Shown here in pieces: positions 9,057 through 51,081 of a stretch of DNA of 64,000 nt. The stretch lies in NCBI RefSeq assembly GCF_002854065.1, contig NZ_CP024147.1. The stretch is one strand, 5' to 3'. The notes beneath the pieces were generated by a model. The model was not told where the DNA came from and did not search any database. It was given only the letters and a program-made list of their open reading frames with translations. How positions within the stretch are numbered: the first letter of the stretch is position 1; every line of letters begins with the position of its first letter. The translations under genes were made by a program, and so were the position numbers. Source of the stretch: Escherichia coli. Lineage in GTDB: Bacteria; Pseudomonadota; Gammaproteobacteria; Enterobacterales; Enterobacteriaceae.

Positions 9057-9125
<69 letters not shown>

Positions 9126-9179: not shown

Positions 9180-9205
9180 CGACCAAAGGTAACGAGGTAA
9201 CAACC

Positions 9206-11668: not shown

Positions 11669-11669
11669 C

Positions 11670-12602: not shown

Positions 12603-13889
12603 ATGAAACTCTACAATCTTAAAGATCACAATGAGCAGGTCAGCTTTGCGCAAGCCGTAACCCAGGGGTTGGGCAAAAATCAGGGGCTGTTTTTTCCGCA
12701 CGACCTGCCGGAATTCAGCCTGACTGAAATTGATGAGATGCTGAAGCTGGATTTTGTCACCCGCAGTGCGAAGATCCTCTCGGCGTTTATTGGTGATGAA
12801 ATCCCGCAGGAAATCCTGGAAGAGCGCGTGCGCGCGGCGTTTGCCTTCCCGGCTCCGGTCGCCAATGTTGAAAGCGATGTCGGTTGTCTGGAATTGTTCC
12901 ACGGGCCAACGCTGGCATTTAAAGATTTCGGCGGTCGCTTTATGGCACAAATGCTGACCCATATTGCGGGCGATAAGCCAGTGACCATTCTGACCGCGAC
13001 CTCCGGTGATACCGGAGCGGCAGTGGCTCATGCTTTCTACGGTTTACCGAATGTGAAAGTGGTTATCCTCTATCCACGAGGCAAAATCAGTCCACTGCAA
13101 GAAAAACTGTTCTGTACATTGGGCGGCAATATCGAAACTGTTGCCATCGACGGCGATTTCGATGCCTGTCAGGCGCTGGTGAAGCAGGCGTTTGATGATG
13201 AAGAGCTGAAAGTGGCGCTGGGGTTAAACTCAGCTAACTCGATTAACATCAGCCGGTTGCTGGCGCAGATTTGCTACTACTTTGAAGCAGTTGCGCAGCT
13301 GCCGCAGGAAGCGCGCAACCAGCTGGTTGTCTCGGTGCCAAGCGGAAACTTCGGCGATTTGACGGCGGGTCTGCTGGCGAAGTCACTCGGTCTGCCGGTG
13401 AAACGTTTTATTGCTGCGACCAACGTGAACGATACCGTGCCACGTTTCCTGCACGACGGTCAGTGGTCACCCAAAGCGACTCAGGCGACGTTATCCAACG
13501 CGATGGACGTGAGTCAGCCGAACAACTGGCCGCGTGTGGAAGAGTTGTTCCGCCGCAAAATCTGGCAACTGAAAGAGCTGGGTTATGCAGCCGTGGATGA
13601 TGAAACCACGCAACAGACAATGCGTGAGTTAAAAGAACTGGGCTACACTTCGGAGCCGCACGCTGCCGTAGCGTATCGTGCGCTGCGTGACCAGTTGAAT
13701 CCAGGCGAATATGGCTTGTTCCTCGGCACCGCGCATCCGGCGAAATTTAAAGAGAGCGTGGAAGCGATTCTCGGTGAAACGTTGGATCTGCCAAAAGAGC
13801 TGGCAGAACGTGCCGATTTACCCTTGCTTTCGCATAATCTGCCCGCCGATTTTGCTGCGTTGCGTAAATTGATGATGAATCATCAGTAA
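12603..13889 (+). CDS. thrC: Threonine synthase
   Basis: 428-aa ORF MKLYNLKDHNEQVSFAQAVTQGLGKNQGLFFP... Confidence 0.95.
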   Translation: MKLYNLKDHNEQVSFAQAVTQGLGKNQGLFFPHDLPEFSLTEIDEMLKLDFVTRSAKILSAFIGDEIPQEILEERVRAAFAFPAPVANVESDVGCLELFHGPTLAFKDFGGRFMAQMLTHIAGDKPVTILTATSGDTGAAVAHAFYGLPNVKVVILYPRGKISPLQEKLFCTLGGNIETVAIDGDFDACQALVKQAFDDEELKVALGLNSANSINISRLLAQICYYFEAVAQLPQEARNQLVVSVPSGNFGDLTAGLLAKSLGLPVKRFIAATNVNDTVPRFLHDGQWSPKATQATLSNAMDVSQPNNWPRVEELFRRKIWQLKELGYAAVDDETTQQTMRELKELGYTSEPHAAVAYRALRDQLNPGEYGLFLGTAHPAKFKESVEAILGETLDLPKELAERADLPLLSHNLPADFAALRKLMMNHQ

Positions 13890-13910
13890 CAGCTATTCAT
13901 TATCTCAATC

Positions 13911-13946
13911 AGGCCGGGTTTGCTTTTATGCAGCCCGGCTTTTTTG
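13911..13946 (+). terminator. thr operon terminator
   Basis: aggccgggtttgcttttatgcagcccggcttttttg hairpin plus T-run. Confidence 0.6.
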
Positions 13947-14102
13947 TGAAGAAAATATGGAGAGAAACGACAGGGAAAAAGGAGGAATTCTCAATAAATG
14001 CGGTAACTTAGAGATTAGGATTGCGGAGAATAACAACCGCCGTTCTCATCGCGTAATCTCCGGATATCGACCCATAACGGGCAATGATAAAAGGAGTAAC
14101 CT

Positions 14103-14399
14103 GTGAAAAAGATGCAATCTATCGTACTCGCACTTTCCCTGGTTCTGGTCGCTCCCATGGCAACGCAGGCTGCGGAAATTACGTTAGTCCCGTCAGTAAA
14201 ATTACAGATAGGCGATCGTGATAATCGTGGCTATTACTGGGATGGCGGTCATTGGCGCGACCACGGCTGGTGGAAACAACATTATGAATGGCGAGGCAAT
14301 CGCTGGCACCCACACGGACCGCCGCCACCGCCGCGTCACCATAAGAAAGCTCATCATGATCATCACGGCGGTTATGGTCCAGGCAAACATCACCGCTAA
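14103..14399 (+). CDS. yaaX: DUF2502-family secreted His/Pro-rich protein
   Basis: 98-aa ORF with signal peptide and [14 protein letters not shown] tail. Confidence 0.8.
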
Positions 14400-14540
14400 A
14401 TGACAAATGCCGGGTAACAATCCGGCATTCAGCGCCTGATGCGACGCTGGCGCGTCTTATCAGGCCTACGTGAATTCTGCAATATATTGAATCTGCATGC
14501 TTTTGTAGGCCGGATAAGGCGTTCACGCCGCATCCGGCAT
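14400..14540. repeat. REP/BIME palindromic units downstream of yaaX
   Basis: gcctgatgcgacgctggcgcgtcttatcaggcctac ... gccggataaggcgttcacgccgcatccggc. Confidence 0.6.
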
Positions 14541-14551
14541 TGACTACAAAC

Positions 14552-15328
14552 TTAACGCTGCTCGTAGCGTTTAAACACCAGTTCGCCATTGCTGGAGGAA
14601 GCTTCATCAAAGAAGTAACCTTCGCTATTAAAACCAGTCAGTTGCTCTGGTTTGGTCAGCCGATTTTCAATAATGAAACGACTCATCAGACCGCGTGCTT
14701 TCTTAGCGTAGAAGCTGATTATCTTAAATTTGCCGTTCTTCTCATCGAGGAACACCGGCTTGATAATCTCGGCATTCAATTTCTTCGGCTTCACCGATTT
14801 AAAATACTCATCTGACGCCAGATTAATCACCACATTATCGCCTTGTGCTGCGAGCGCCTCGTTCAGCTTGTTGGTGATGATATCTCCCCAGAATTGATAC
14901 AGATCTTTCCCTCGGGCATTCTCAAGACGGATCCCCATTTCCAGACGATAAGGCTGCATTAAATCGAGCGGGCGGAGTACGCCATACAAGCCGGAAAGCA
15001 TTCGCAAATGCTGTTGGGCAAAATCGAAATCGTCTTCGCTGAAGGTTTCGGCCTGCAAGCCGGTGTAGACATCACCTTTAAACGCCAGAATCGCCTGGCG
15101 GGCATTCTCCGGCGTGAAATCTGGCTGCCAGTCATGAAAGCGAGCGGCGTTGATACCTGCCAGTTTGTCGCTGATACGCATCAGCGTGCTAATCTGCGGA
15201 GGCGTCAGTTTCCGCGCTTCATGGATCAACTGCTGGGAATTGTCTAACAGCTCCGGCAGCGTATATCGCGTGGTGGTCAACGGGCTTTGGTAATCAAGCG
15301 TTTTCGCAGGTGAAATAAGAATCAGCAT
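14552..15328 (-). CDS. yaaA: Peroxide stress protein YaaA (DUF328)
   Basis: 258-aa [31 protein letters not shown]... Confidence 0.9.
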
Positions 15329-15397
15329 ATCCAGTCCTTGCAGGAAATTTATGCCGACTTTAGCAAAAAAAGAGAATGAGTTGATCGATAGTTGTGA

Positions 15398-16828
15398 TTA
15401 CTCCTGCGAAACATCATCCCACGCGTCCCGAGAAAGCTGGCGACCGATATCCGGATAACGCAACGGATCAAACACCGGGCGCACGCCGAGTTTACGCTGG
15501 CGTAGATAATCACTGGCAATGGTATGAACCACAGGCGAGAGCAGTAAAATGGCGGTCAAATTGGTAATAGCCATGCAGGCCATTATGATATCTGCCAGTT
15601 GCCACATCAGCGGAAGACTTAGCAAGGTGCCGCCGATGACCGTTGCGAAGGTGCAGATCCGCAAACACCAGATCGCTTTAGGGTTGTTCAGGCGTAAAAA
15701 GAAGAGATTGTTTTCGGCATAAATGTAGTTGGCAACGATGGAGCTGAAGGCAAACAGAATAACCACGAGGGTAACAAACTCAGCACCCCAGGAACCCATT
15801 AGCACCCGCATCGCCTTCTGGATAAGCTGAATACCTTCCAGCGGCATGTAGGTTGTGCCGTTACCCGCCAGTAATATCAGCATGGCGCTTGCCGTACAGA
15901 TGACCAGGGTGTCGATAAAAATGCCAATCATCTGGACAATTCCTTGCGCTGCCGGATGCGGAGGCCAGGACGCCGCTGCCGCTGCCGCGTTTGGCGTCGA
16001 ACCCATTCCCGCCTCATTGGAAAACATACTGCGCTGAAAACCGTTAGTAATCGCCTGGCTTAAGGTATATCCCGCCGCGCCGCCTGCCGCTTCCTGCCAG
16101 CCAAAAGCACTCTCAAAAATAGACCAAATGACGTGGGGAAGTTGCCCGATATTTATTACGCAAATCACCAGGCTGGTCAGTACCCAGATTATCGCCATCA
16201 ACGGGACAAACCCCTGCATGAGCCGGGCGACGCCATGAAGACCGCGAGTGATTGCCAGCAGAGCAAAGACAGCGAGAATAATGCCTGTCACCAGCGGGGG
16301 AAAATCAAAAGAAAAACTCAGGGCTCGGGCAACAGCGTTTGCCTGAACTCCGCTGAAAATTATGCCGTAGGCGATGAGCAAAAAGACGGCGAACAGAACG
16401 CCCATCCAGCGCATCCCCAGCCCGCGCGACATATACCATGCCGGTCCGCCACGAAACTGCCCATTGACGTCACGTTCTTTATAAAGTTGTGCAAGGGAAC
16501 ATTCGGCAAACGAGGTCGCCATGCCGATAAACGCGGCAACCCACATCCAGAAGACGGCTCCAGGTCCACCGGCGGTAATAGCCAGCGCAACGCCGGCCAG
16601 GTTGCCGCTACCCACGCGCGCCGCAAGACTGGTACACAATGACTGAAATGAGGTTAAACCGCCTGGCTGTGGATGAATGCTATTTTTAAGACTTTTGCCA
16701 AACTGGCGGATGTAGCGAAACTGCACAAATCCGGTGCGAAAAGTGAACCAACAACCTGCGCCGAAGAGCAGGTAAATCATTACCGATCCCCAAAGGACGC
16801 TGTTAATAAAGGAGAAAAAATCTGGCAT
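15398..16828 (-). CDS. yaaJ: Sodium:alanine symporter family transporter
   Basis: 476-aa polytopic membrane ORF at the conserved position. Confidence 0.9.
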   Translation of the reverse strand: MPDFFSFINSVLWGSVMIYLLFGAGCWFTFRTGFVQFRYIRQFGKSLKNSIHPQPGGLTSFQSLCTSLAARVGSGNLAGVALAITAGGPGAVFWMWVAAFIGMATSFAECSLAQLYKERDVNGQFRGGPAWYMSRGLGMRWMGVLFAVFLLIAYGIIFSGVQANAVARALSFSFDFPPLVTGIILAVFALLAITRGLHGVARLMQGFVPLMAIIWVLTSLVICVINIGQLPHVIWSIFESAFGWQEAAGGAAGYTLSQAITNGFQRSMFSNEAGMGSTPNAAAAAASWPPHPAAQGIVQMIGIFIDTLVICTASAMLILLAGNGTTYMPLEGIQLIQKAMRVLMGSWGAEFVTLVVILFAFSSIVANYIYAENNLFFLRLNNPKAIWCLRICTFATVIGGTLLSLPLMWQLADIIMACMAITNLTAILLLSPVVHTIASDYLRQRKLGVRPVFDPLRYPDIGRQLSRDAWDDVSQE

Positions 16829-17106
16829 GCATATCCCTCTTATTGCCGGTCGCGATGACTTTCCTGTGTAAACGTTACCAATTGTTTAAGAAGTATATAC
16901 GCTACGAGGTACTTGATAACTTCTGCGTAGCATACATGAGGTTTTGTTTAAAAATGGCGGGCGATATCAACGCAGTGTCAGAAATCCGAAACAGTCTCGC
17001 CTGGCGATAACCGTCTTGTCGGCGGTTGCGCTGACGTTGCGTCGTGATATCATCAGGGCAGACCGGTTACATCCCCCTAACAAGCTGTTTAAAGAGAAAT
17101 ACTATC

Positions 17107-18060
17107 ATGACGGACAAATTGACCTCCCTTCGTCAGTACACCACCGTAGTGGCCGACACTGGGGACATCGCGGCAATGAAGCTGTATCAACCGCAGGATG
17201 CCACAACCAACCCTTCTCTCATTCTTAACGCAGCGCAGATTCCGGAATATCGTAAGTTGATTGATGATGCTGTCGCCTGGGCGAAACAGCAGAGCAACGA
17301 TCGCGCGCAGCAGATCGTGGACGCGACCGACAAACTGGCAGTAAATATTGGTCTGGAAATCCTGAAACTGGTTCCGGGCCGTATCTCAACTGAAGTTGAT
17401 GCGCGTCTTTCCTATGACACCGAAGCGTCAATTGCGAAAGCAAAACGCCTGATCAAACTCTACAACGATGCAGGTATTAGCAACGATCGTATTCTGATCA
17501 AACTGGCTTCTACCTGGCAGGGTATCCGTGCTGCGGAACAGCTGGAAAAAGAAGGCATCAACTGTAACCTGACCCTGCTGTTCTCCTTCGCTCAGGCTCG
17601 TGCTTGTGCGGAAGCGGGCGTATTCCTGATCTCGCCGTTTGTTGGTCGTATTCTTGATTGGTACAAAGCGAATACCGATAAGAAAGAGTACGCTCCGGCA
17701 GAAGATCCGGGCGTGGTTTCTGTATCTGAAATCTACCAGTACTACAAAGAGCACGGTTATGAAACCGTGGTTATGGGCGCAAGCTTCCGTAACATCGGCG
17801 AAATTCTGGAACTGGCAGGCTGCGACCGTCTGACCATCGCACCGGCACTGCTGAAAGAGCTGGCGGAGAGCGAAGGGGCTATCGAACGTAAACTGTCTTA
17901 CACCGGCGAAGTGAAAGCGCGTCCGGCGCGTATCACTGAGTCCGAGTTCCTGTGGCAGCACAACCAGGATCCAATGGCAGTAGATAAACTGGCGGAAGGT
18001 ATCCGTAAGTTTGCTATTGACCAGGAAAAACTGGAAAAAATGATCGGCGATCTGCTGTAA
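17107..18060 (+). CDS. talB: Transaldolase B
   Basis: Start at [27 protein letters not shown] inside ORF 17044..18060; 317 aa. Confidence 0.95.
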
Positions 18061-18174
18061 TCATTCTTAGCGTGACCGGGAAGTCGGTCACGCTACCTCT
18101 TCTGAAGCCTGTCTGTCACTCCCTTCGCAGTGTATCATTCTGTTTAACGAGACTGTTTAAACGGAAAAATCTTG

Positions 18175-18762
18175 ATGAATACTTTACGTATTGGCTTAGT
18201 TTCCATCTCTGATCGCGCATCCAGCGGCGTTTATCAGGATAAAGGTATCCCTGCGCTGGAAGAATGGCTGACATCGGCGCTAACCACGCCGTTTGAACTG
18301 GAAACCCGCTTAATCCCCGATGAGCAGGCGATCATCGAGCAAACGTTGTGTGAGCTGGTGGATGAAATGAGTTGCCATCTGGTGCTCACCACGGGCGGAA
18401 CTGGCCCGGCGCGTCGTGACGTAACGCCCGATGCGACACTGGCAGTAGCGGACCGCGAGATGCCTGGCTTTGGTGAACAGATGCGCCAGATCAGCCTGCA
18501 TTTTGTACCAACTGCGATCCTTTCGCGTCAGGTGGGTGTGATTCGCAAACAGGCGCTGATCCTTAACTTACCCGGTCAGCCGAAGTCTATTAAAGAGACG
18601 CTGGAAGGTGTGAAGGACGCTGAGGGTAACGTTGTGGTACACGGTATTTTTGCCAGCGTACCGTACTGCATTCAGTTGCTGGAAGGGCCATACGTTGAAA
18701 CGGCACCAGAAGTGGTTGCTGCATTCAGACCGAAGAGTGCAAGACGCGACGTTAGCGAATAA
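18175..18762 (+). CDS. mog: Molybdopterin adenylyltransferase
   Basis: MNTLRIGLVSISDRASSGVY...; 195 aa. Confidence 0.9.
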   Translation: MNTLRIGLVSISDRASSGVYQDKGIPALEEWLTSALTTPFELETRLIPDEQAIIEQTLCELVDEMSCHLVLTTGGTGPARRDVTPDATLAVADREMPGFGEQMRQISLHFVPTAILSRQVGVIRKQALILNLPGQPKSIKETLEGVKDAEGNVVVHGIFASVPYCIQLLEGPYVETAPEVVAAFRPKSARRDVSE

Positions 18763-18766
18763 AAAA

Positions 18767-18786
18767 ATCCCCCCGAGCGGGGGGAT
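18767..18786. terminator. Bidirectional terminator between mog and satP
   Basis: atccccccgagcggggggat perfect hairpin flanked by A-run and T/A-rich sequence. Confidence 0.6.
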
Positions 18787-18796
18787 CTCAAAACAA

Positions 18797-19363
18797 TTAG
18801 TGGGATTCACCAATCGGCAGAACGGTGCGACCAAACTGCTCGTTCAGCACTTCACCCATCGCCAGATAGATTGCGCTGGCACCGCAGATCAGACCAATCC
18901 AGCCGGCAAAGTGGATGATCGCGGCATTACTGGCAATGTTACCGATCGCCAGCAGGGCAAACAGCACGGTCAGGCTAAAGAAAACGAATTGCAGGACGCG
19001 TGTGCCTTTCAGAGTGCCGAAGAACATAAACAACGTAAATACGCCCCACAGACCCAGGTAGACACCAAGGAACTGTGCATTTGGCGCATCGGTCAGACCC
19101 AGTTTCGGCATCAGCAGAATCGCAACCAGCGTCAGCCAGAAAGAACCGTAAGAGGTGAATGCGGTTAAACCGAAAGTGTTGCCTTTTTTGTACTCCAGCA
19201 GACCGGCAAAAATTTGCGCGATGCCGCCGTAGAAAATGCCCATGGCAAGAATAATACCGTCCAGAGCGAAATAACCCACGTTGTGCAGATTAAGCAGAAT
19301 GGTGGTCATGCCGAAGCCCATCAGGCCCAGCGGTGCCGGATTAGCCAACTTAGTGTTGCCCAT
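18797..19363 (-). CDS. satP: Acetate/succinate:H+ symporter (GPR1/FUN34/YaaH family)
   Basis: 188-aa membrane ORF MGNTKLANPAPLGLMGFGMTTILLNLHN... Confidence 0.9.
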   Translation of the reverse strand: MGNTKLANPAPLGLMGFGMTTILLNLHNVGYFALDGIILAMGIFYGGIAQIFAGLLEYKKGNTFGLTAFTSYGSFWLTLVAILLMPKLGLTDAPNAQFLGVYLGLWGVFTLFMFFGTLKGTRVLQFVFFSLTVLFALLAIGNIASNAAIIHFAGWIGLICGASAIYLAMGEVLNEQFGRTVLPIGESH

Positions 19364-19511
19364 AATTCCTCAAAAATCATCATCGAATGAATGGTGAAAT
19401 AATTTCCCTGAATAACTGTAGTGTTTTCAGGGCGCGGCATAATAATCAGCCAGTGGGGCAGTGTCTACGATCTTTTGAGGGGAAAATGAAAATTTTCCCC
19501 GGTTTCCGGTA

Positions 19512-20225
19512 TCAGACCTGAGTGGCGCTAACCATCCGGCGCAGGCAGGCTATTTGCAGTACGGCTGGAATCGTCACGCGATAGGCGCTGCCGCTGACCG
19601 CTTTAACCCCATTTAATGCTGCGCCCACAGGGCCTCCCAGACCCGCGCCGCGCAGCAAACCATGCCCAAGCACGCTCATTGCTGCGTGGGTGCGTAAAAT
19701 GCGGGTCAATTGGCTGGAAAGCAAATGCGACACGCCTTTTGCCAATAATTTGTCTTTCATCAGCAGCGGCAGCAGCTCTTCCAGCTCATTCACCCTGGCA
19801 TCGACCGCGTGCAGAAACTCCTGCTTATGTTCCTCGTCCATTTTCTTCCAGGTATTACGCAGAAATTGTTCCAGTAACTGTTGCTCAATTTCAAACGTAG
19901 ACATCTCTTTGTCGGCTTTCAGCTTCAATCGTTTTGAAACATCGAGCAAAATGGCCCGATACAATTTACCGTGTCCGCGCAGTTTGTTGGCGATACTATC
20001 GCCACCAAAATGCTGTAATTCTCCAGCAATCAGCTGCCAGTTGCGGCGATGTTGCTCGGGATGTCCTTCCATCGATTTAAACAGTTCGTTGCGCATCAGT
20101 ACGCTGGAGAGGCGAGTTTTGCCTTTTTCATTATGGGTGAGCAGCCGGGCGAAATTTGCTAACTGTTCCTCACTACAATGCTGGAGAAAATCCAGATCTG
20201 AATCATTCAGGTAATTAACATTCAT
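19512..20225 (-). CDS. yaaW: UPF0174 protein YaaW
   Basis: 237-aa ORF at the conserved position. Confidence 0.85.
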   Translation of the reverse strand: MNVNYLNDSDLDFLQHCSEEQLANFARLLTHNEKGKTRLSSVLMRNELFKSMEGHPEQHRRNWQLIAGELQHFGGDSIANKLRGHGKLYRAILLDVSKRLKLKADKEMSTFEIEQQLLEQFLRNTWKKMDEEHKQEFLHAVDARVNELEELLPLLMKDKLLAKGVSHLLSSQLTRILRTHAAMSVLGHGLLRGAGLGGPVGAALNGVKAVSGSAYRVTIPAVLQIACLRRMVSATQV

Positions 20226-20250
20226 TTTTTGTGGCTTCTATATTCTGGCG

Positions 20251-20655
20251 TTAGTCGTCGCCGATAATTTTCAGCGTGGCCATATCCGATGAGTTCACCG
20301 TATGACCGGAAAAGGTGATTTTTGAGACGCAGCGTTTATTGTCGTTATCGCTGTTAATGTTGATCCAGTCAGTGGTTTGCCCTTCTTTTATTTCTGAAGG
20401 AATATTCAGGCTCTGACTGGCGCTACGGGCGGCTTTGAAATAAACCGATGCACCGCTTAACTGTAAATCGCCATGGTCGGCAGAGAGTTGTATGCGTTTC
20501 ACAATGCGACAAACAGGAAGTTTCAGCGCCAGATCGTTGGTTTCGTTACGCGGCATCGCAATGACGCCGAGGAGTTTATGGTTGTTTGCCTGCGCCGTGC
20601 AGCACAGCATCAGGCTAATCGCCAGGCTGGCGGAAATCGTAAAAACGGATTTCAT
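20251..20655 (-). CDS. yaaI: DUF2541 secreted protein YaaI
   Basis: 134-aa ORF with signal peptide. Confidence 0.85.
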
Positions 20656-20873
20656 AAGGATTCTCTTAGTGGGAAGAGGTAGGGGGATGAATACCCACTA
20701 GTTTACTGCTGATAAAGAGAAGATTCAGGCACGTAATCTTTTCTTTTTATTACAATTTTTTGATGAATACCTTGGCTGCGATTCATTCTTTATATGAATA
20801 AAATTGCTGTCAATTTTACGTCTTGTCCTGCCATATCGCGAAATTTCTGCGCAAAAGCACAAAAAATTTTTGC

Positions 20874-20986
20874 ATCTCCCCCTTGATGACGTGGGTTACG
20901 ACCCCATTTAGTAGTCAACCGCAGTGAGTGAGTCTGCAAAAAAATGAAATTGGGCAGTTGAAACCAGACGTTTCGCCCCTATTACA
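20874..20986 (+). promoter_or_regulatory. dnaK heat-shock (sigma-32) promoters P1 and P2
   Basis: tctcccccttgatga ... gaccccatttagt and ttgaaa ... cgcccctattac match the sigma-32 -35/-10 consensus (CTTGAA / CCCCATnT) upstream of dnaK. Confidence 0.7.
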
Positions 20987-21031
20987 GACTCACAACCACA
21001 TGATGACTGAATATATAGTGGAGACGTTTAG

Positions 21032-22948
21032 ATGGGTAAAATAATTGGTATCGACCTGGGTACTACCAACTCTTGTGTAGCGATTATGGATGGCACCACT
21101 CCTCGCGTGCTGGAGAACGCCGAAGGCGATCGCACCACGCCTTCTATTATTGCCTATACCCAGGATGGTGAAACTCTGGTTGGTCAGCCGGCTAAACGTC
21201 AGGCAGTGACGAACCCGCAAAACACCCTGTTTGCGATTAAACGCCTGATTGGCCGCCGCTTCCAGGACGAAGAAGTACAGCGTGATGTTTCCATCATGCC
21301 GTTCAAAATTATTGCTGCTGATAACGGCGACGCATGGGTCGAAGTTAAAGGCCAGAAAATGGCACCGCCGCAGATTTCTGCTGAAGTGCTGAAAAAAATG
21401 AAGAAAACCGCTGAAGATTACCTGGGTGAACCGGTAACTGAAGCTGTTATCACCGTACCGGCATACTTTAACGATGCTCAGCGTCAGGCAACCAAAGACG
21501 CAGGCCGTATCGCTGGTCTCGAAGTAAAACGTATCATCAACGAACCGACCGCAGCTGCGCTGGCTTACGGTCTGGACAAAGGTACTGGCAACCGTACTAT
21601 CGCGGTTTATGACCTGGGTGGTGGTACTTTCGATATTTCTATTATTGAAATCGACGAAGTTGACGGCGAAAAAACCTTCGAAGTTCTGGCAACCAACGGT
21701 GATACCCACCTGGGTGGTGAAGACTTCGACAGCCGTCTGATCAACTATCTGGTTGAAGAATTCAAGAAAGATCAGGGCATTGACCTGCGCAACGATCCGC
21801 TGGCAATGCAGCGCCTGAAAGAAGCGGCAGAAAAAGCGAAAATCGAACTGTCTTCCGCTCAGCAGACCGACGTTAACCTGCCGTACATCACTGCAGACGC
21901 GACCGGTCCGAAACACATGAACATCAAAGTGACTCGTGCGAAACTGGAAAGCCTGGTTGAAGATCTGGTTAACCGTTCCATCGAGCCGCTGAAAGTTGCA
22001 CTGCAGGACGCTGGCCTGTCTGTATCTGATATCGACGACGTTATCCTCGTTGGTGGTCAGACTCGTATGCCAATGGTTCAGAAGAAAGTTGCTGAGTTCT
22101 TTGGTAAAGAGCCGCGTAAAGACGTTAACCCGGACGAAGCTGTAGCAATCGGTGCTGCTGTTCAGGGTGGTGTTCTGACTGGTGACGTAAAAGACGTACT
22201 GCTGCTGGACGTTACCCCGCTGTCTCTGGGTATCGAAACCATGGGCGGTGTGATGACGACGCTGATCGCGAAAAACACCACTATCCCGACCAAGCACAGC
22301 CAGGTGTTCTCTACCGCTGAAGACAACCAGTCTGCGGTAACCATCCATGTGCTGCAGGGTGAACGTAAACGTGCGGCTGATAACAAATCTCTGGGTCAGT
22401 TCAACCTGGATGGTATCAACCCGGCACCGCGCGGCATGCCGCAGATCGAAGTTACCTTCGATATCGATGCTGACGGTATCCTGCACGTTTCCGCGAAAGA
22501 TAAAAACAGCGGTAAAGAGCAGAAGATCACCATCAAGGCGTCTTCTGGTCTGAACGAAGATGAAATCCAGAAAATGGTACGCGACGCAGAAGCTAACGCC
22601 GAAGCTGACCGTAAGTTTGAAGAGCTGGTACAGACTCGCAACCAGGGCGACCATCTGCTGCACAGCACCCGTAAGCAGGTTGAAGAAGCAGGCGACAAAC
22701 TGCCGGCTGACGACAAAACTGCTATCGAGTCTGCACTGACTGCACTGGAAACTGCTCTGAAAGGTGAAGACAAAGCCGCTATCGAAGCGAAAATGCAGGA
22801 GCTGGCACAGGTTTCCCAGAAACTGATGGAAATCGCCCAGCAGCAACATGCCCAGCAGCAGACTGCCGGTGCTGATGCTTCTGCAAACAACGCGAAAGAT
22901 GACGATGTTGTCGACGCTGAATTTGAAGAAGTCAAAGACAAAAAATAA
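21032..22948 (+). CDS. dnaK: Hsp70 chaperone DnaK
   Basis: 638-aa [41 protein letters not shown]... Confidence 0.97.
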
Positions 22949-23036
22949 TCGCCCTATAAACGGGTAATTATACTGACACGGGCGAAGGGGAATTTCCTCT
23001 CCGCCCGTGCATTCATCTAGGGGCAATTTAAAAAAG

Positions 23037-24167
23037 ATGGCTAAGCAAGATTATTACGAGATTTTAGGCGTTTCCAAAACAGCGGAAGAGCGTGAAATCA
23101 AAAAGGCCTACAAACGCCTGGCCATGAAATACCACCCGGACCGTAACCAGGGTGACAAAGAGGCCGAGGCGAAATTTAAAGAGATCAAGGAAGCTTATAA
23201 AGTTCTGACCGACTCGCAAAAACGTGCGGCATACGATCAGTATGGTCATGCTGCGTTTGAGCAAGGTGGCATGGGCGGCGGCGGTTTTGGCGGCGGCGCA
23301 GACTTCAGCGATATTTTTGGTGACGTTTTCGGCGATATTTTTGGCGGCGGACGTGGTCGTCAACGTGCGGCGCGCGGTGCTGATTTACGCTATAACATGG
23401 AGCTCACCCTCGAAGAAGCTGTACGTGGCGTGACCAAAGAGATCCGCATTCCGACTCTGGAAGAGTGTGACGTTTGCCACGGTAGCGGTGCAAAACCAGG
23501 TACACAGCCGCAGACCTGTCCGACCTGTCATGGTTCTGGTCAGGTGCAGATGCGCCAGGGTTTCTTTGCCGTGCAGCAGACCTGTCCACACTGTCAGGGC
23601 CGCGGTACGCTGATCAAAGATCCGTGCAACAAATGTCATGGTCATGGTCGTGTTGAGCGCAGCAAAACGCTGTCCGTTAAAATCCCGGCAGGGGTGGACA
23701 CTGGAGACCGCATCCGTCTTGCGGGCGAAGGTGAAGCGGGTGAGCATGGCGCACCGGCAGGCGATCTGTACGTTCAGGTTCAGGTTAAACAGCACCCGAT
23801 TTTCGAGCGTGAAGGCAACAACCTGTATTGCGAAGTCCCGATCAACTTCGCTATGGCGGCGCTGGGTGGTGAAATCGAAGTACCGACCCTTGATGGTCGC
23901 GTTAAACTGAAAGTGCCTGGCGAAACCCAGACCGGTAAGCTGTTCCGTATGCGCGGTAAAGGCGTCAAGTCTGTCCGCGGTGGCGCACAGGGTGATTTGC
24001 TGTGCCGCGTTGTCGTCGAAACACCGGTAGGCCTGAACGAGAAGCAGAAACAGCTGCTGCAAGAGCTGCAAGAAAGCTTCGGTGGCCCAACCGGCGAGCA
24101 CAACAGCCCGCGCTCAAAGAGCTTCTTTGATGGTGTGAAGAAGTTTTTTGACGACCTGACCCGCTAA
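23037..24167 (+). CDS. dnaJ: Hsp40 co-chaperone DnaJ
   Basis: Start at [14 protein letters not shown] inside ORF 23007..24167; J-domain, G/F region, CxxCxGxG zinc fingers. Confidence 0.95.
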
Positions 24168-24270
24168 CCTTCCCAAAAGCCTGCCCGTGGGCAGGCCTGG
24201 GTAAAAATAGGGTGCGTTGAAGATATGCGAGCACCTGTAAAGTGGCGGGGATCACTCCCCGCCGTTGCTC

Positions 24271-24423
24271 TTACTCGGATTCGTAAGCCGTGAAAACAGC
24301 AACCTCCGTCTGGCCAGTTCGGATGTGAACCTCACAGAGGTCTTTTCTCGTTACCAGCGCCGCCACTACGGCGGTGATACAGATGACGATCAGGGCGACA
24401 ATCATCGCCTTATGCTGCTTCAT
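24271..24423 (-). CDS. hokC: Type I toxin HokC (Gef), 50 aa
   Basis: MKQHKAMIVALIVICITAVVAALVTRKDLCEVHIRTGQTEVAVFTAYESE is embedded in the 80-aa ORF 24271..24513, which is the overlapping mokC frame. Confidence 0.85.
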   Translation of the reverse strand: MKQHKAMIVALIVICITAVVAALVTRKDLCEVHIRTGQTEVAVFTAYESE

Positions 24424-34893: not shown

Positions 34894-37710
34894 ATGAGTG
34901 ACTATAAATCAACCCTGAATTTGCCGGAAACAGGGTTCCCGATGCGTGGCGATCTCGCCAAGCGCGAACCGGGAATGCTGGCGCGTTGGACTGATGATGA
35001 TCTGTACGGCATCATCCGTGCGGCTAAAAAAGGCAAAAAAACCTTCATTCTGCATGATGGCCCTCCTTATGCGAATGGCAGCATTCATATTGGTCACTCG
35101 GTTAACAAGATTCTGAAAGACATTATCGTGAAGTCCAAAGGGCTTTCCGGTTATGACTCGCCGTATGTGCCTGGCTGGGACTGCCACGGTCTGCCGATCG
35201 AGCTGAAAGTAGAGCAAGAATACGGTAAGCCGGGTGAGAAATTCACCGCCGCCGAGTTCCGCGCCAAGTGCCGTGAATACGCGGCGACCCAGGTTGACGG
35301 TCAACGCAAAGACTTTATCCGTCTGGGCGTGCTGGGCGACTGGTCGCACCCGTACCTGACCATGGACTTCAAAACTGAAGCCAATATCATCCGCGCGCTG
35401 GGCAAAATCATCGGCAATGGTCACCTGCACAAAGGCGCGAAGCCGGTGCACTGGTGCGTAGACTGCCGTTCTGCACTGGCAGAAGCGGAAGTTGAGTATT
35501 ACGACAAAACTTCTCCGTCCATTGACGTCGCTTTCCAGGCGGTCGATCAGGATGCGCTGAAAGCGAAATTTGGCGTAAGCAACGTTAACGGCCCAATCTC
35601 GCTGGTGATCTGGACCACTACGCCATGGACTCTGCCTGCGAACCGCGCAATCTCTATTGCACCTGATTTCGACTATGCGCTGGTGCAGATCGACGGTCAG
35701 GCCGTGATTCTGGCGAAAGATCTGGTTGAAAGCGTAATGCAGCGTATCGGCGTGACCGATTACACCATTCTCGGCACGGTAAAAGGTGCGGAGCTTGAAC
35801 TGCTTCGCTTTACCCATCCGTTTATGGGCTTCGACGTTCCGGCAATTCTTGGCGATCACGTTACCCTGGATGCCGGTACCGGTGCCGTTCACACCGCGCC
35901 TGGCCACGGCCCGGACGACTATGTGATCGGTCAGAAATACGGCCTGGAAACCGCTAACCCGGTTGGCCCGGACGGCACTTATCTGCCGGGCACTTATCCG
36001 ACGCTGGATGGCGTGAACGTCTTCAAAGCGAACGACATCGTCGTTGCGCTGCTGCAGGAAAAAGGCGCGCTGCTGCACGTTGAGAAAATGCAGCACAGCT
36101 ATCCGTGCTGCTGGCGTCACAAAACGCCGATCATCTTCCGCGCGACGCCGCAGTGGTTCGTCAGCATGGATCAGAAAGGTCTGCGTGCGCAGTCACTGAA
36201 AGAGATCAAAGGCGTGCAGTGGATCCCGGACTGGGGCCAGGCGCGTATCGAGTCGATGGTTGCTAACCGTCCTGACTGGTGTATCTCCCGTCAGCGCACC
36301 TGGGGCGTACCGATGTCACTGTTCGTGCACAAAGACACGGAAGAGCTGCATCCGCGTACCCTCGAACTGATGGAAGAAGTGGCTAAACGCGTTGAAGTTG
36401 ACGGCATCCAGGCGTGGTGGGATCTCGATGCGAAAGAGATCCTCGGCGATGAAGCTGATCAGTACGTGAAAGTGCCGGATACGCTGGATGTATGGTTTGA
36501 CTCCGGATCTACCCACTCTTCCGTTGTTGACGTGCGTCCGGAATTTGCCGGTCACGCAGCGGACATGTATCTGGAAGGTTCTGACCAGCACCGTGGTTGG
36601 TTCATGTCTTCCCTGATGATCTCCACCGCGATGAAAGGCAAAGCGCCGTATCGTCAGGTACTGACCCACGGCTTTACCGTGGATGGTCAGGGCCGCAAGA
36701 TGTCTAAATCCATCGGCAACACCGTTTCGCCGCAGGATGTGATGAACAAACTGGGCGCGGATATTCTGCGTCTGTGGGTGGCATCAACCGACTACACCGG
36801 TGAAATGGCCGTTTCTGACGAGATCCTGAAACGTGCTGCCGATAGCTATCGTCGTATCCGTAACACCGCGCGCTTCCTGCTGGCAAACCTGAATGGTTTT
36901 GATCCAGCAAAAGATATGGTGAAACCGGAAGAGATGGTGGTACTGGATCGCTGGGCCGTAGGTTGTGCGAAAGCGGCACAGGAAGACATCCTCAAGGCGT
37001 ACGAAGCATATGATTTCCACGAAGTGGTACAGCGTCTGATGCGCTTCTGCTCCGTTGAGATGGGTTCCTTCTACCTCGACATCATCAAAGACCGTCAGTA
37101 CACCGCCAAAGCGGATAGCGTGGCGCGTCGTAGCTGCCAGACTGCGCTGTATCACATCGCTGAAGCGCTGGTGCGCTGGATGGCACCAATCCTCTCCTTC
37201 ACCGCTGATGAAGTGTGGGGCTACCTGCCGGGCGAACGTGAAAAATACGTCTTCACCGGTGAGTGGTACGAAGGCCTGTTTGGTCTGGCAGACAGTGAAG
37301 CAATGAACGATGCGTTTTGGGACGAGCTGTTGAAAGTGCGTGGCGAAGTGAACAAAGTCATTGAGCAAGCGCGTGCCGACAAGAAAGTGGGTGGCTCGCT
37401 GGAAGCGGCAGTAACCTTGTATGCAGAACCGGAACTGGCGGCGAAACTGACCGCGCTGGGCGATGAATTACGATTTGTCCTGTTGACCTCCGGCGCTACC
37501 GTTGCAGACTATAACGACGCACCTGCTGATGCTCAGCAGAGCGAAGTACTCAAAGGGCTGAAAGTCGCGTTGAGTAAAGCCGAAGGTGAGAAGTGCCCAC
37601 GCTGCTGGCACTACACCCAGGATGTCGGCAAGGTGGCGGAACACGCAGAAATCTGCGGCCGCTGTGTCAGCAACGTCGCCGGTGACGGTGAAAAACGTAA
37701 GTTTGCCTGA
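34894..37710 (+). CDS. ileS: Isoleucyl-tRNA synthetase
   Basis: 938-aa ORF with HIGH ([11 protein letters not shown]) and KMSKS motifs. Confidence 0.97.
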
Positions 37711-38204
37711 TGAGTCAATCGATCTGTTCAACAGGGCTACGCTGGCTGTGGCTGGTGGTAGTCGTGCTGATTATCGATCTGGGCAGCAAATACCTGATCC
37801 TCCAGAACTTTGCTCTGGGGGATACGGTCCCGCTGTTCCCGTCGCTTAATCTGCATTATGCGCGTAACTATGGCGCGGCGTTTAGTTTCCTTGCCGATAG
37901 CGGCGGCTGGCAGCGTTGGTTCTTTGCCGGTATTGCGATTGGTATTAGCGTGATCCTGGCAGTGATGATGTATCGCTCGAAGGCCACGCAGAAGCTAAAC
38001 AATATCGCTTATGCGCTGATTATTGGCGGCGCGCTGGGCAACCTGTTCGACCGCCTGTGGCACGGCTTCGTTGTCGATATGATCGACTTCTACGTCGGCG
38101 ACTGGCACTTCGCCACCTTCAACCTTGCCGATACTGCCATTTGTGTCGGTGCGGCACTGATTGTGCTGGAAGGTTTTTTGCCTTCTAAAGCGAAAAAACA
38201 ATAA
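37710..38204 (+). CDS. lspA: Lipoprotein signal peptidase II
   Basis: 164-aa membrane ORF; ATGA start/stop overlap with ileS. Confidence 0.95.
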
Positions 38205-38265
38205 TAAACCCTGCCGGATAAGGCCTACAGATTGCTGCGAAATCGTAGGCCGCATCCGGCAAAAA
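38205..38265. repeat. REP palindromic unit downstream of lspA
   Basis: ctgccggataaggcctacag ... cgtaggccgcatccggc. Confidence 0.5.
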
Positions 38266-38291
38266 TCCTCAAAATATAAGAGCAAACCTGC

Positions 38292-38741
38292 ATGTCTGAA
38301 TCTGTACAGAGCAATAGCGCCGTCCTGGTGCACTTCACGCTGAAACTCGATGATGGCACCACCGCTGAGTCTACCCGCAACAACGGTAAACCGGCGCTGT
38401 TCCGCCTGGGCGATGCTTCTCTTTCTGAAGGGCTGGAGCAACACCTGCTGGGGCTGAAAGTGGGCGATAAAACCACCTTCTCGCTGGAGCCAGATGCGGC
38501 GTTTGGCGTGCCGTCACCGGACCTGATTCAGTACTTCTCCCGCCGTGAGTTTATGGATGCAGGCGAGCCAGAAATTGGCGCAATTATGCTTTTTACCGCA
38601 ATGGATGGCAGTGAGATGCCTGGCGTGATCCGCGAAATTAACGGCGACTCTATTACCGTTGATTTCAACCATCCGCTGGCCGGGCAGACCGTTCATTTTG
38701 ATATTGAAGTGCTGGAAATCGATCCGGCACTGGAGGCGTAA
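38292..38741 (+). CDS. fkpB: FKBP-type peptidyl-prolyl cis-trans isomerase
   Basis: 149-aa [31 protein letters not shown]... Confidence 0.9.
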
Positions 38742-38742
38742 C

Positions 38743-39693
38743 ATGCAGATCCTGTTGGCCAACCCACGTGGTTTTTGTGCCGGGGTAGACCGCGCTATCA
38801 GCATTGTTGAAAACGCGCTTGCCATTTACGGCGCACCGATATATGTCCGTCACGAAGTGGTGCATAACCGCTACGTGGTCGATAGCCTGCGCGAGCGTGG
38901 AGCTATCTTTATTGAGCAGATCAGCGAAGTGCCGGACGGCGCGATCCTGATCTTCTCCGCACATGGTGTTTCTCAGGCGGTACGTAACGAAGCGAAAAGC
39001 CGTGATTTGACGGTATTCGACGCCACCTGTCCGCTGGTGACCAAAGTGCATATGGAAGTAGCCCGCGCCAGCCGTCGTGGCGAAGAGTCTATTCTCATCG
39101 GTCACGCCGGGCACCCGGAAGTGGAAGGGACGATGGGGCAGTACAGCAACCCTGAAGGGGGAATGTATCTGGTCGAATCGCCAGACGATGTGTGGAAACT
39201 GACGGTCAAAAACGAAGAGAAGCTCTCCTTTATGACCCAAACCACGCTGTCGGTGGATGACACGTCTGATGTGATCGACGCGCTGCGTAAACGCTTCCCG
39301 AAGATTGTCGGTCCGCGCAAAGATGACATCTGCTACGCCACGACTAACCGTCAGGAAGCGGTACGCGCCCTGGCAGAACAGGCGGAAGTTGTGTTGGTGG
39401 TCGGTTCGAAAAACTCCTCCAACTCCAACCGTCTGGCGGAGCTGGCCCAGCGTATGGGCAAACGCGCGTTTTTGATTGACGATGCGAAAGATATCCAGGA
39501 AGAGTGGGTGAAAGAGGTTAAATGCGTCGGCGTGACTGCGGGCGCATCGGCTCCGGATATTCTGGTGCAGAATGTTGTGGCACGTTTGCAACAGCTGGGC
39601 GGTGGTGAAGCCATTCCGCTGGAAGGCCGTGAAGAAAACATTGTTTTCGAAGTGCCGAAAGAGCTGCGTGTCGATATTCGTGAAGTCGATTAA
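38743..39693 (+). CDS. ispH: 4-hydroxy-3-methylbut-2-enyl diphosphate reductase
   Basis: Start at [19 protein letters not shown] inside ORF 38659..39693; 316 aa. Confidence 0.95.
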
Positions 39694-39758
39694 GTCATTA
39701 GCAGCCTAAGTTATGCGAAAATGCCGGTCTTGTTACCGGCATTTTTTATGGAGAAAAC

Positions 39759-40673
39759 ATGCGTTTACCTATCTTCCTCGATACTGACCCCGGCATTGAC
39801 GATGCCGTCGCCATTGCCGCCGCGATTTTTGCCCCCGAACTCGACCTGCAACTGATGACCACCGTCGCGGGTAATGTCTCGGTTGAGAAAACCACCCGCA
39901 ACGCCCTGCAACTGCTGCATTTCTGGAATGCGGAGATTCCGCTCGCCCAGGGAGCCGCTGTGCCGCTGGTACGCGCACCGCGTGATGCAGCATCTGTGCA
40001 CGGCGAATCGGGAATGGCTGGCTACGACTTTGTTGAGCACAACCGAAAGCCACTCGGGATACCGGCGTTTCTGGCGATTCGGGATGCCCTGATGCGTGCA
40101 CCAGAGCCCGTTACCCTGGTGGCCATCGGCCCGTTAACCAATATTGCGCTGTTACTTTCACAATGCCCGGAATGTAAACCGTATATTCGTCGTCTGGTGA
40201 TCATGGGCGGCTCTGCCGGTCGCGGCAACTGCACGCCAAACGCCGAGTTTAATATCGCTGCCGATCCAGAAGCGGCAGCCTGTGTCTTCCGTAGCGGCAT
40301 CGAAATCGTCATGTGCGGTCTGGATGTCACCAATCAGGCAATATTAACCCCTGACTATCTCGCTACTTTGCCGGAGTTGAATCGCACCGGAAAAATGCTC
40401 CACGCCCTGTTTAGCCACTACCGTAGCGGCAGTATGCAAAGCGGTCTGCGAATGCACGATCTCTGCGCCATCGCCTGGCTGGTGCGCCCGGACTTATTCA
40501 CCCTCAAGCCGTGTTTTGTCGCGGTAGAAACTCAAGGCGAATTTACCTCAGGCACGACGGTGGTTGATATCGACGGTTGCCTGGGCAAACCAGCCAATGT
40601 ACAGGTGGCATTGGATCTGAATGTAAAAGGCTTCCAACAGTGGGTGGCTGAGGTGCTGGCTCTGGTGCCGTAA
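39759..40673 (+). CDS. rihC: Non-specific ribonucleoside hydrolase
   Basis: 304-aa ORF with [12 protein letters not shown] nucleoside-hydrolase motif. Confidence 0.9.
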
Positions 40674-40824
40674 CCTGTCACATGTTATCGGCATGCAGTC
40701 ATTCATCGACTCATGCCTTTCACTGATATCCCTCCCTGTTTATCATTAATTTCTAATTATCAGCGTTTTTGGCTGGCGGCGTAGCGATGCGCTGGTTACT
40801 CTGAAAACGGTCTATGCAAATTAA

Positions 40825-41661
<837 letters not shown>

Positions 41662-42064
41662 CCACAAAATGTTTATGATGATGCAAAAGTAACACATTTA
41701 ATTTATTAATTATAAAGGGCTTTAATTTTTAGCCCTTTTATTTTTGGTGTTATGCTTTTAAATTTTCTATAACTGCCAAAAATTACATGTTTTGTCTTCT
41801 ATTTTTGTTGTTTTAATGTAAATTTTGACCATTTGGTCCACTTTTTCCTGCTCGTTTTTATTTCATGCAATCTTCTTGCTGCGCAAGCGTTTTACAGAAC
41901 AGGTTAGATGATCTTTTTGTCGCTTAATGCCTGTAAAACATGCATGAGCCACAAAATAATATAAAAAATCCTGCCATTAAGTTGACTTTTAGCGCCCATA
42001 TCTCCAGAATGCCGCCGTTTGCCAGAAATTCGTCGGTAAGCAGATTTGCATTGATTTACGTCAT

Positions 42065-42106
42065 CATTGTGAATTAATATGCAAATAAAGTGAGTGAATA
42101 TTCTCT
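42065..42106 (+). promoter_or_regulatory. carAB P2 region with tandem ARG-box-like ArgR operators
   Basis: ttgtgaattaatatgcaaa and gtgagtgaatattctct resemble the ARG box (TnTGAATwwwwATTCAnw) just upstream of carA. Confidence 0.5.
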
Positions 42107-42116
42107 GGAGGGTGTT

Positions 42117-43265
42117 TTGATTAAGTCAGCGCTATTGGTTCTGGAAGACGGAACCCAGTTTCACGGTCGGGCCATAGGGGCAACAGGTTCGGCGGTTGGG
42201 GAAGTCGTTTTCAATACTTCAATGACCGGTTATCAAGAAATCCTCACTGATCCTTCCTATTCTCGTCAAATCGTTACTCTTACTTATCCCCATATTGGCA
42301 ATGTCGGCACTAATGACGCCGATGAAGAATCTTCTCAGGTACATGCACAAGGTCTGGTGATTCGCGATCTGCCGCTGATTGCCAGCAACTTCCGTAATAC
42401 CGAAGACCTCTCTTCTTACCTGAAGCGCCATAACATCGTGGCGATTGCCGATATCGATACCCGTAAGCTGACGCGTTTACTGCGCGAGAAAGGCGCACAG
42501 AATGGCTGCATTATCGCAGGCGATAACCCGGATGCGGCGCTGGCGTTAGAAAAAGCCCGCGCGTTCCCAGGTCTGAATGGCATGGATCTGGCAAAAGAAG
42601 TGACCACCGCAGAAGCCTATAGCTGGACACAAGGGAGCTGGACGTTGACCGGCGGCCTGCCAGAAGCGAAAAAAGAAGACGAGCTGCCGTTCCACGTCGT
42701 GGCTTATGATTTTGGTGCCAAGCGCAACATCCTGCGGATGCTGGTGGATAGAGGCTGTCGCCTGACCATCGTTCCGGCGCAAACTTCTGCGGAAGATGTG
42801 CTGAAAATGAATCCAGACGGCATCTTCCTCTCCAACGGTCCTGGCGACCCGGCCCCGTGCGATTACGCCATTACCGCCATCCAGAAATTCCTCGAAACCG
42901 ATATTCCGGTCTTCGGCATCTGCCTCGGTCATCAGCTGCTGGCTCTGGCGAGCGGTGCGAAGACTGTCAAAATGAAATTTGGTCACCACGGCGGCAACCA
43001 TCCGGTTAAAGATGTGGAGAAAAACGTGGTGATGATCACCGCCCAGAACCACGGTTTTGCGGTGGACGAAGCAACATTACCTGCAAACCTGCGTGTCACG
43101 CATAAATCCCTGTTCGACGGTACGTTACAGGGCATTCATCGCACCGATAAACCGGCGTTCAGCTTCCAGGGGCACCCGGAAGCCAGCCCAGGTCCACACG
43201 ACGCAGCGCCGTTGTTCGACCACTTTATCGAGTTAATTGAGCAGTACCGTAAAACCGCTAAGTAA
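42117..43265 (+). CDS. carA: Carbamoyl-phosphate synthase small subunit
   Basis: Start taken at the TTG codon ([17 protein letters not shown]) inside ORF 42090..43265; 382 aa. Confidence 0.95.
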
Positions 43266-43282
43266 TCAGGAGTAAAAGAGCC

Positions 43283-46504
<3,222 letters not shown>

Positions 46505-46556
46505 TAGCGTGTCATGGCGGATATTTTTCATCCGCTAATTTGATCGAATAACTAAT

Positions 46557-48735: not shown

Positions 48736-49014
48736 TTATTTCAGATTCTTTCTAATTATTTTCCCCGAGCAATTACGTGGCAGATCTTTTCTGATCTCCA
48801 GATAAGAGGGCACTTTAAATTTCGCCATATTTTGTTCGCAGAAGCGAAAAAATTCCTCTTCGCTCAATGTTTCACCTTCATTCAGCACCACAAATGCTTT
48901 GATGGCTTCATCGCGAATCGAATCTTTAATACCCACAACCACGATGTCCTGAATTTTCGGATGGGTGGCGATGATATTTTCCAGCTCCACGCAGGAGACA
49001 TTCTCGCCACCGCG
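48736..49014 (-). pseudogene. caiC: caiC 3' fragment (C-terminal ~85 codons of the CoA ligase), split by IS1
   Basis: ORF 48736..48990 encodes ...[22 protein letters not shown]...KIIRKNLK; abuts the IS1 left end at 49015. Confidence 0.9.
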
Positions 49015-49069
49015 GGTGATGCTGCCAACTTACTGATTTAGTGTATGATGGTGTTTTTGAGGTGCTCCA

Positions 49070-49345
49070 GTGGCTTCTGTTTCTATCAGCTGTCCCTCCT
49101 GTTCAGCTACTGACGGGGTGGTGCGTAACGGCAAAAGCACTGCCGGACATCAGCGCTATCTCTGCTCTCACTGCCGTAAAACATGGCAACTGCAGTTCAC
49201 TTACACCGCTTCTCAACCCGGTACGCACCAGAAAATCATTGATATGGCCATGAATGGCGTTGGATGCCGGGCAACCGCCCGCATTATGGGCGTTGGCCTC
49301 AACACGATTTTCCGCCATTTAAAAAACTCAGGCCGCAGTCGGTAA
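49070..49345 (+). CDS. insA: IS1 InsA
   Basis: 91-aa ORF identical to the copy 1 InsA. Confidence 0.9.
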
Positions 49346-49767
49346 CCTCGCGCATACAGCCGGGCAGTGACGTCATCGTCTGCGCGGAAATGGACGAACA
49401 GTGGGGATACGTCGGGGCTAAATCGCGCCAGCGCTGGCTGTTTTACGCGTATGACAGGCTCCGGAAGACGGTTGTTGCGCACGTATTCGGTGAACGCACT
49501 ATGGCGACGCTGGGGCGTCTTATGAGCCTGCTGTCACCCTTTGACGTGGTGATATGGATGACGGATGGCTGGCCGCTGTATGAATCCCGCCTGAAGGGAA
49601 AGCTGCACGTAATCAGCAAGCGATATACGCAGCGAATTGAGCGGCATAACCTGAATCTGAGGCAGCACCTGGCACGGCTGGGACGGAAGTCGCTGTCGTT
49701 CTCAAAATCGGTGGAGCTGCATGACAAAGTCATCGGGCATTATCTGAACATAAAACACTATCAATAA
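49264..49767 (+). CDS. insB: IS1 InsB
   Basis: 167-aa ORF identical to the copy 1 InsB. Confidence 0.9.
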
Positions 49768-49782
49768 GTTGGAGTCATTACC

Positions 49783-51081
49783 GCCACCGCGTTTGATCAT
49801 ATTGCAGCGGCGATCGACGACATAAAAAAAGCCTTCTTCGTCGCGGTATCCGGTATCGCCGGTATGCAGCCAGCCATCAGCTTCCAGCACTTTTGCAGTG
49901 GCTTTCGGGTTGAGAAAATACTCTTTGAAGATGGTTTTCCCTGGTACGCCTTTAATACAGATTTCACCGATCTCACCTGCCGGGAGCGGGCGATTGTGAT
50001 CGTCGCGGATCTCCGCTTCGTAGCAAAACCCCGCCCGACCAATCGACGGCCAGCGTCGTTTATCGCCAGGGCGATCGCCGATAATGCCCACAATGGTTTC
50101 CGTCATCCCATAAGACGTCAGCAAGCGAACGCCGAAGCGTTCACAAAACGCATCTTTTTCCTGCTCCGACAAGTTGAGATAAAACATCACTTCCCGCAGG
50201 CGGTGTTGCCGATCGTTCGCTGAAGGCGGCTGCACCATCAACGTACGAATCATCATCGGAATACATTCGGTAACGGTGGCGCGGTACTTCTGCACCTGTC
50301 CCCAGAAGGCGCGGGCGCTGTATTTCTCGACCAGCACAAAGGTGGCCCCGGCAGAAAACGCCGCCATCGCCGCAGTACACTGGCAATCGATATGAAACGC
50401 AGGCATTACCGTCAGGTAGACGTCATCGTCACGCAGTGCACACTGCCAGGCGGAGTAATATCCAGCGAAGCGCAGGTTGTAATGGGTAATCACCACACCT
50501 TTCGGTCGGGAGGTGGTGCCGGAGGTGAAGAGAATTTCCGCCGTATCGTCAGTCGATAGCGGCGGTGCATAGCACAAGGTGGCAGGTTGTTGATTTTTCA
50601 GTTGAGTAAACGAACTCACGCCATCATCAGCGGGAAGTGCCACATCTGTCAGGCAAATGTGCCGCAACTGAGTGGCATCTTCCTGCTGAATCTGTTGATA
50701 CATAGGATAAAATTGCGCACTGGTCACCAGCAGGCAAGCCTGGCTATTTTGCAAGATCCACGCGCTTTCCTCGCGCAACAGGCGGGCGTTAATCGGCACC
50801 ATAATCGCGCCAATTTTTGCCAGCCCGAACCAGCAAAAGATAAATTCCGGGCAGTTGTCGAGATGTAGTGCAACCTTGTCGCCTTTGCGAATCCCCAGCG
50901 TATAAAACAGGTTTGCCGTGCGGTTAATCTCCTGATTTAACTCAAGATAACTATACCGGTTAACGACTCCGCCGCTGGATTCACAAATCAGCGCCGTTTT
51001 ATGACCGTAAACGTCCGCCAGATCGTCCCACATTTGACGTAGATGTTGTCCGCCAATGATATCCATTGCACCTCTATCCAT
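49783..51081 (-). pseudogene. caiC: caiC 5' fragment (N-terminal ~430 codons), split by IS1
   Basis: ORF 49702..51081: native sequence ...[27 protein letters not shown]... runs to ...[10 protein letters not shown] and then reads into IS1. Confidence 0.9.

Follow-up and report, generated by a model that had tools for sequence, protein, structure and literature searches.

The caiC gene, encoding crotonobetaine/carnitine-CoA ligase, is split by an insertion sequence in the E. coli genome studied here, which raises the question of how the element came to lie there, when this happened, and what is left of the gene and of its operon. The locus was analysed within a window, the whole stretch of 64,000 nucleotides of contig NZ_CP024147.1, to which all positions refer unless another genome is named (Table 1). 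The explanation that we retain, with near certainty, is a simple transposition of IS1 into caiC, which duplicated 9 bp of the target and inactivated the gene recently.

The element at caiC is an ordinary IS1 within a duplicated target

The initial annotation had placed an IS1 at 49015..49782 between identical 9-bp flanks. Both the coordinates and the two GCCACCGCG copies were confirmed, by reading the sequence and by script. The 768 bp separating the two copies, which were read and checked in the same way, start with GGTGATGCTGCCAACTTACTGAT and end with AAGTTGGAGTCATTACC. These termini are imperfect inverted repeats of about 23 bp (GGTGATGCTGCCAACTTACTGAT and GGTAATGACTCCAACTTATTGAT), so that length and ends are those of the IS1 family, and the 23-mer of the left end occurs 3 times in the window, with 0 occurrences expected from shuffled sequences. 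The identification as IS1 was borne out by the coding content as well: the element has insA, the A6C motif and insB', the frameshift arrangement of the family, and the fused 232-aa InsAB' scored 243.8 bits on the NCBIfam equivalog model for IS1 transposase (NF033558), whose cut-off is 100 bits.

Compared to IS1A of E. coli K-12 MG1655 (19796..20563), the caiC copy is identical over 760 of 768 nt, the remainder being 8 substitutions. The two have in common their 768 bp, the terminal inverted repeats, insA, the A6C motif, insB' and a 9-bp duplication, and no structural differences were seen between them. The caiC copy is apparently an ordinary IS1, intact as far as its reading frames show, and these intact frames, together with the identical copy at 30681..31448, are compatible with recent activity of the element.

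As for the target, GCCACCGCG is present twice around the element and once in intact relatives, its length being the one typical of IS1 duplications. The match is 9 out of 9, in register with both IS1 ends, for which the probability by chance is 4^-9, or approximately 4×10−6. Identity at the junctions actually extends over 10 bases, the C that ends IS1 (49782) being the same as base 49005; judged from the empty site, the duplication proper is 9 bp.

Table 1. Features of the caiC locus and IS1 copies of the window.
Feature	Position	Strand	Remarks
Third IS1	30681..31448	-	100% identical to the caiC copy, 17.6 kb away; target duplication absent
caiC 3' fragment, codons 426-517 and stop	48736..49014	-	AMP-binding_C domain and SGK motif
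Left target-site duplication copy, 9 bp GCCACCGCG	49006..49014	.	gene strand CGCGGTGGC, caiC codons R426-G427-G428
IS1 element, 768 bp	49015..49782	+	opposite to caiC orientation; IRL ~49015..49037, IRR ~49760..49782
insA, 91 aa, GTG start; IS1 zinc-finger DNA-binding regulator	49070..49345	+	NF033558 and NF050000
insB' frame, catalytic part of InsAB' transposase	49264..49767	+	
AAAAAAC motif, programmed -1 frameshift joining insA to insB'	49321..49327	+	
Right target-site duplication copy, 9 bp GCCACCGCG	49783..49791	.	single copy in intact relatives
caiC 5' fragment, codons 1-428	49783..51066	-	ORF continues 26 codons into the IS1 right end, stop at 49702
Second IS1, splits caiT at codons 80-83	54935..55702	+	own 9-bp duplication GGTTCGTTA at 54926..54934 and 55703..55711

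Excision in silico restores a complete caiC

The gene had been described as split near codon 430, and the break was located more exactly at codons 426-428: the duplicated 9 bp read CGC GGT GGC (R-G-G) and lie within a conserved IKRGGE stretch. In an alignment with the solved oxalate-CoA ligase 5ie0, both the RGGE and the SGK motifs are conserved.

The check that the initial annotation had proposed, namely removal of the IS1 with one copy of the repeat, gave the outcome expected for a simple insertion. A continuous minus-strand ORF of 1554 nt was obtained, 517 codons long and beginning with MDIIGG. Its product was recognised as CaiC by the equivalog model NF005947 (NCBIfam), with 983.8 bits over 1-517 of the 518 model positions and a cut-off of 651 bits; the split gene as present in the window fails to give a full-length match. 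Pfam domains of the restored protein are AMP-binding (17-384) and AMP-binding_C (435-510), the two-domain layout of the ANL family, and the IS1 break separates one from the other. Because of this position of the duplication, the truncated CaiC lacks the whole C-terminal domain. The 3' fragment has no start codon, and the longest ORF remaining in it is 84 aa long, with a GTG start at 48990. The exact 454-aa fusion product of CaiC with the IS1 end has a single record in NCBI data. We conclude that caiC is a pseudogene made by IS1.

Comparison with empty-site genomes

Two complete E. coli genomes, CUWW06 (NZ_CP182139.1) and 100416 (NZ_CM128593.1), have cai operons that are annotated and intact. 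Gene order in the window is colinear with the annotated loci of both, caiTABCDE being found in its position next to caiF and fixABCX. The restored caiC and the annotated intact gene of CUWW06 (WP_032280228.1) are 100% identical at the nucleotide level, without a single substitution in 1554 nt, and caiA, caiB, caiD and caiE are identical to those of this genome too. The 5,143 bp lying between the IS1 copies of caiC and caiT are 100.0% identical to both genomes. Once both IS1 elements were removed, each with one copy of its duplication, the 13,143 bp from carB to fixX aligned without any gap, with 4 mismatches against CUWW06 and 4 against 100416. Further along the window, segments 1..30680 and 31449..46553 are 99.97% identical to CUWW06, the differences being 13 substitutions and a single 1-nt indel. 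A single window-specific change was found in the cai operon, at position 54852, where CaiT carries G108R in comparison with the two nearest intact genomes.

The gapless alignment and the identical genes indicate that the target contained a single GCCACCGCG, that the insertion was simple and did not involve a rearrangement, and that the fragments have not mutated since. The earlier view of a simple insertion thus holds, the duplication being perfect and both flanks colinear with the empty-site genomes, and so does the statement that the fragments are otherwise intact. No sequence evidence against a simple insertion was encountered in the analysis.

The same comparison gives an indication of age. 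Since the window matches CUWW06 at 99.97% outside the IS1 sites, all three IS1 events of the window took place after it had diverged from these relatives. The absence of any extra substitution in caiC, the identity of its IS1 with another copy of the window, and the empty site found in relatives at 99.97% all mark the caiC insertion as recent, as it arose after the divergence from relatives at about 3 differing sites per 10 kb. Its distribution points the same way as the recent date put forward initially. A megablast search with 200 nt of flank and 200 nt of IS1 found the junction, in the same orientation, in 0 of 5,426 complete RefSeq E. coli genomes, while 5 genomes had IS1 at other sites of caiC. 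With a junction constructed in the opposite orientation, none of the complete E. coli genomes had IS1 at the window site, and 2 had it elsewhere in caiC. Exact and degenerate junction patterns (the degenerate ones in both orientations) gave 0 matches in contigs of species-representative genomes, and the degenerate pattern 0 matches in JGI metagenome contigs. A literature search for caiC with IS1 returned nothing relevant. The empty-site comparison makes of this insertion a clean, datable marker of the lineage.

Two further IS1 copies and the origin of the insertion

By blastn, 3 full-length IS1 copies are present in the window. One of the other two interrupts caiT, with which the operon begins; it lies 5,152 bp from the caiC copy and forms a direct repeat with it, so that the pair brackets caiC'-caiB-caiA-'caiT. 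This copy differs from the caiC one by 8 nt and from K-12 IS1A by 1 nt, which makes it closer to IS1A. The last copy, at 30681..31448, replaces 1,537 bp of CUWW06; missing as a result are a fimbrial subunit gene, the greater part of a fimbrial chaperone gene and the final 37 nt of espX1, whose truncated ORF (31427..32833) runs into this IS1. The structure is that of an adjacent deletion associated with IS1.

We considered whether the caiC copy could have been misplaced by the assembler, as IS1 is multicopy and this copy has a 100% identical counterpart 17.6 kb away. Such an artefact is very improbable, however: assemblers do not make 9-bp duplications in exact register with both ends of an element, the fusion ORF is documented on a contig of 4.64 Mb, a size that suggests a finished assembly, and independent IS1 insertions affect the same part of caiC in other genomes (see below).

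Even less credible is an arrival of the two cai copies together, as a composite IS1 transposon which would have moved as a unit with the 5.15 kb between the copies at 49015 and 54935. IS1 pairs do form such elements, Tn9 being the known case, and two direct copies separated by 5,152 bp are found here. But the DNA they enclose is the native caiC'-caiB-caiA-'caiT segment, colinear with intact operons and with 0 to 2 differences per gene; the two copies differ from each other at 8 positions; and each is flanked by its own perfect 9-bp duplication, GCCACCGCG for one and GGTTCGTTA for the other. These separate duplications imply two separate simple insertions. A Tn9-like origin was refuted on this ground, since neither a single outer duplication nor foreign cargo was found. 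The operon has been hit twice by IS1, independently.

Recombination between IS1 copies, by inversion, deletion or cointegrate resolution, has a negligible probability as the way in which IS1 reached caiC, because it would part the two halves of the duplication, whereas here both flanks share the 9 bp and are contiguous, joining seamlessly in empty-site genomes; three IS1 copies are nevertheless present in the window, and the one at 30681..31448, located at the 1537-bp deletion and devoid of duplication, indicates that an IS1-associated rearrangement has occurred in this genome.

Simple insertion is the reading with which we proceed. It is a textbook case of IS1 insertion, which belongs to already known biology and does not reveal a new kind of element, so that its importance beyond annotation is slight.

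Mechanism and expected consequences

The cuts that IS1 makes in its target are staggered by 9 bp, and the gaps are filled by repair. The GCCACCGCG duplication would have been produced along this standard route, the 9 bp of caiC codons being cut in a staggered way and copied as the gaps on either side of the element were repaired.

Adenylating enzymes of the ANL family need a mobile C-terminal domain and the conserved lysine of the SGK motif. As both are missing from the 428-residue N-terminal product of caiC, this fragment should be inactive, by analogy with the family. Expression of the genes downstream, caiD and caiE, is probably reduced too, given the classical polarity of IS1, whichever its orientation. 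This polarity might be incomplete, since a weak outward promoter-like site is found at the left end of the IS1: a hybrid site on the minus strand (49028..49000) associates TTGGCA from the IS1 left end and GAGAAT from the caiC flank, separated by 17 nt, and points toward caiD and caiE. It fits 9 of 12 consensus positions, a score that is not above shuffle expectation in the consensus scan.

With one IS1 in caiC and another close to the beginning of caiT, it is highly likely that the caiTABCDE operon no longer functions, and we predict that the strain would fail to convert L-carnitine to gamma-butyrobetaine anaerobically. Taken together, the two insertions would make it a strain deprived of anaerobic carnitine respiration or conversion. 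The caiC insertion is not the sole lesion of the operon, and it may not be the event which abolished carnitine metabolism, because caiT, upstream, is split by IS1 as well. Recombination between the two directly repeated copies could also readily delete caiC'-caiB-caiA-'caiT.

IS1 insertions in caiC of other genomes

Seven complete E. coli genomes were found to carry IS1 elsewhere in caiC: EA13, PEC414, AVS0968, MIN14, VG1046-3E9, EcPF7 and 2017.18.04CC. Like in the window, the 3' part of caiC is interrupted in all of them, and the orientation is that of the window in 5 of the 7. The positions are different, IS1 being found at 185, 304 and 423 nt from the stop end of caiC and further upstream, compared to 279 nt in the window. 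EA13, PEC414 and AVS0968 have a common IS1 site, with the duplication CGCGAATCG, and the elements of EA13 and AVS0968 (L001 and L004, both at 2607..3374) share the same orientation. The IS1 copies of EA13 and PEC414 are only 93% identical to that of AVS0968, which indicates that different IS1 variants hit this one site independently. More extensive changes were observed in two of the seven genomes. In MIN14 (L002), a fragment of caiT is linked to the caiC 3' fragment by a single IS1 and the greater part of the cai operon is deleted, a structure compatible with a deletion between direct IS1 copies such as those paired in the window. A single IS1 also marks the end of the caiC 3' fragment in VG1046-3E9 (L003), where it links this fragment directly to kefF, with IS1-linked loss of the cai and fix operons.

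Among draft contigs, one (L014; Logan SRR21357663, lineage of GCA_018565165.1) has an IS1 end adjoining the caiC 3' fragment exactly at the equivalent of window position 49014. The orientation is opposite to that of the window, with the IRR beside the 3' fragment, and the flank reads CGCAGTGGC rather than CGCGGTGGC; one junction was recovered. Its flanks show 14 differences from the window over 1700 nt, and we therefore count this insertion as an independent event.

Over all genomes, IS1 ends adjoin the equivalents of window positions 49014 (twice, in the window and L014), 48992 (twice, L012 and L013, in both orientations) and 48991 (L010). Draft contigs of at least four further diverged lineages (L019-L024) start at 49008..49010, that is 4-6 nt inside the flank, which is compatible with insertions at or next to the window site, without proving them. 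By our own calculation, five events falling on three positions within a 36-nt span have a chance probability of roughly 0.02, for a sample that is biased by the way it was ascertained.

These independent insertions, at the window site or within 23 nt of it, hint at a local target preference. It is possible, although on balance we doubt it, that IS1 has repeatedly targeted codons 426-434 of caiC, through independent insertions of either orientation in several lineages of E. coli and Shigella. Target choice by IS1 is known to be non-random. Given this well-known preference and the ascertainment bias of the sample, the hot spot is to be taken as a lead and not as a finding, and it would be a minor point on IS1 target choice. 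One cause might be a local preference of IS1 for sequence or structure, the target GGTGGCGA resembling the termini GGTGATGC and GGTAATGA. Alternatively, loss of carnitine metabolism could have been selected repeatedly. Interrupted fractions for the carnitine-metabolism genes that Hawkey et al. 2020 (PMC7373316) list in a supplementary table range from 0 to 0.07 across S. sonnei, S. dysenteriae and S. flexneri. As far as the genes listed there are concerned, such low fractions argue against a general selection for the loss of carnitine genes in these three main Shigella clades. They also speak against a Shigella origin of the window with a fixed insertion, a reading that was rejected, and so does the 99.97% identity of the window to two ordinary E. 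coli genomes.

Other truncations of caiC were met in the same part of the gene in further public genomes. Their cluster at codons 425-433 was rejected as a signal, for it is ascertainment-biased: the truncations were found via the 84-aa ORF, and this ORF is called only when the break lies just upstream. Some of them may be homopolymer sequencing errors. The truncations (L005-L008, L011; P0002, P0013, P0014) consist of nonsense mutations at K425, E429 and C433, a single inserted nucleotide at codons 426/427, and frameshifts in a T7 run at codons ~413-416.
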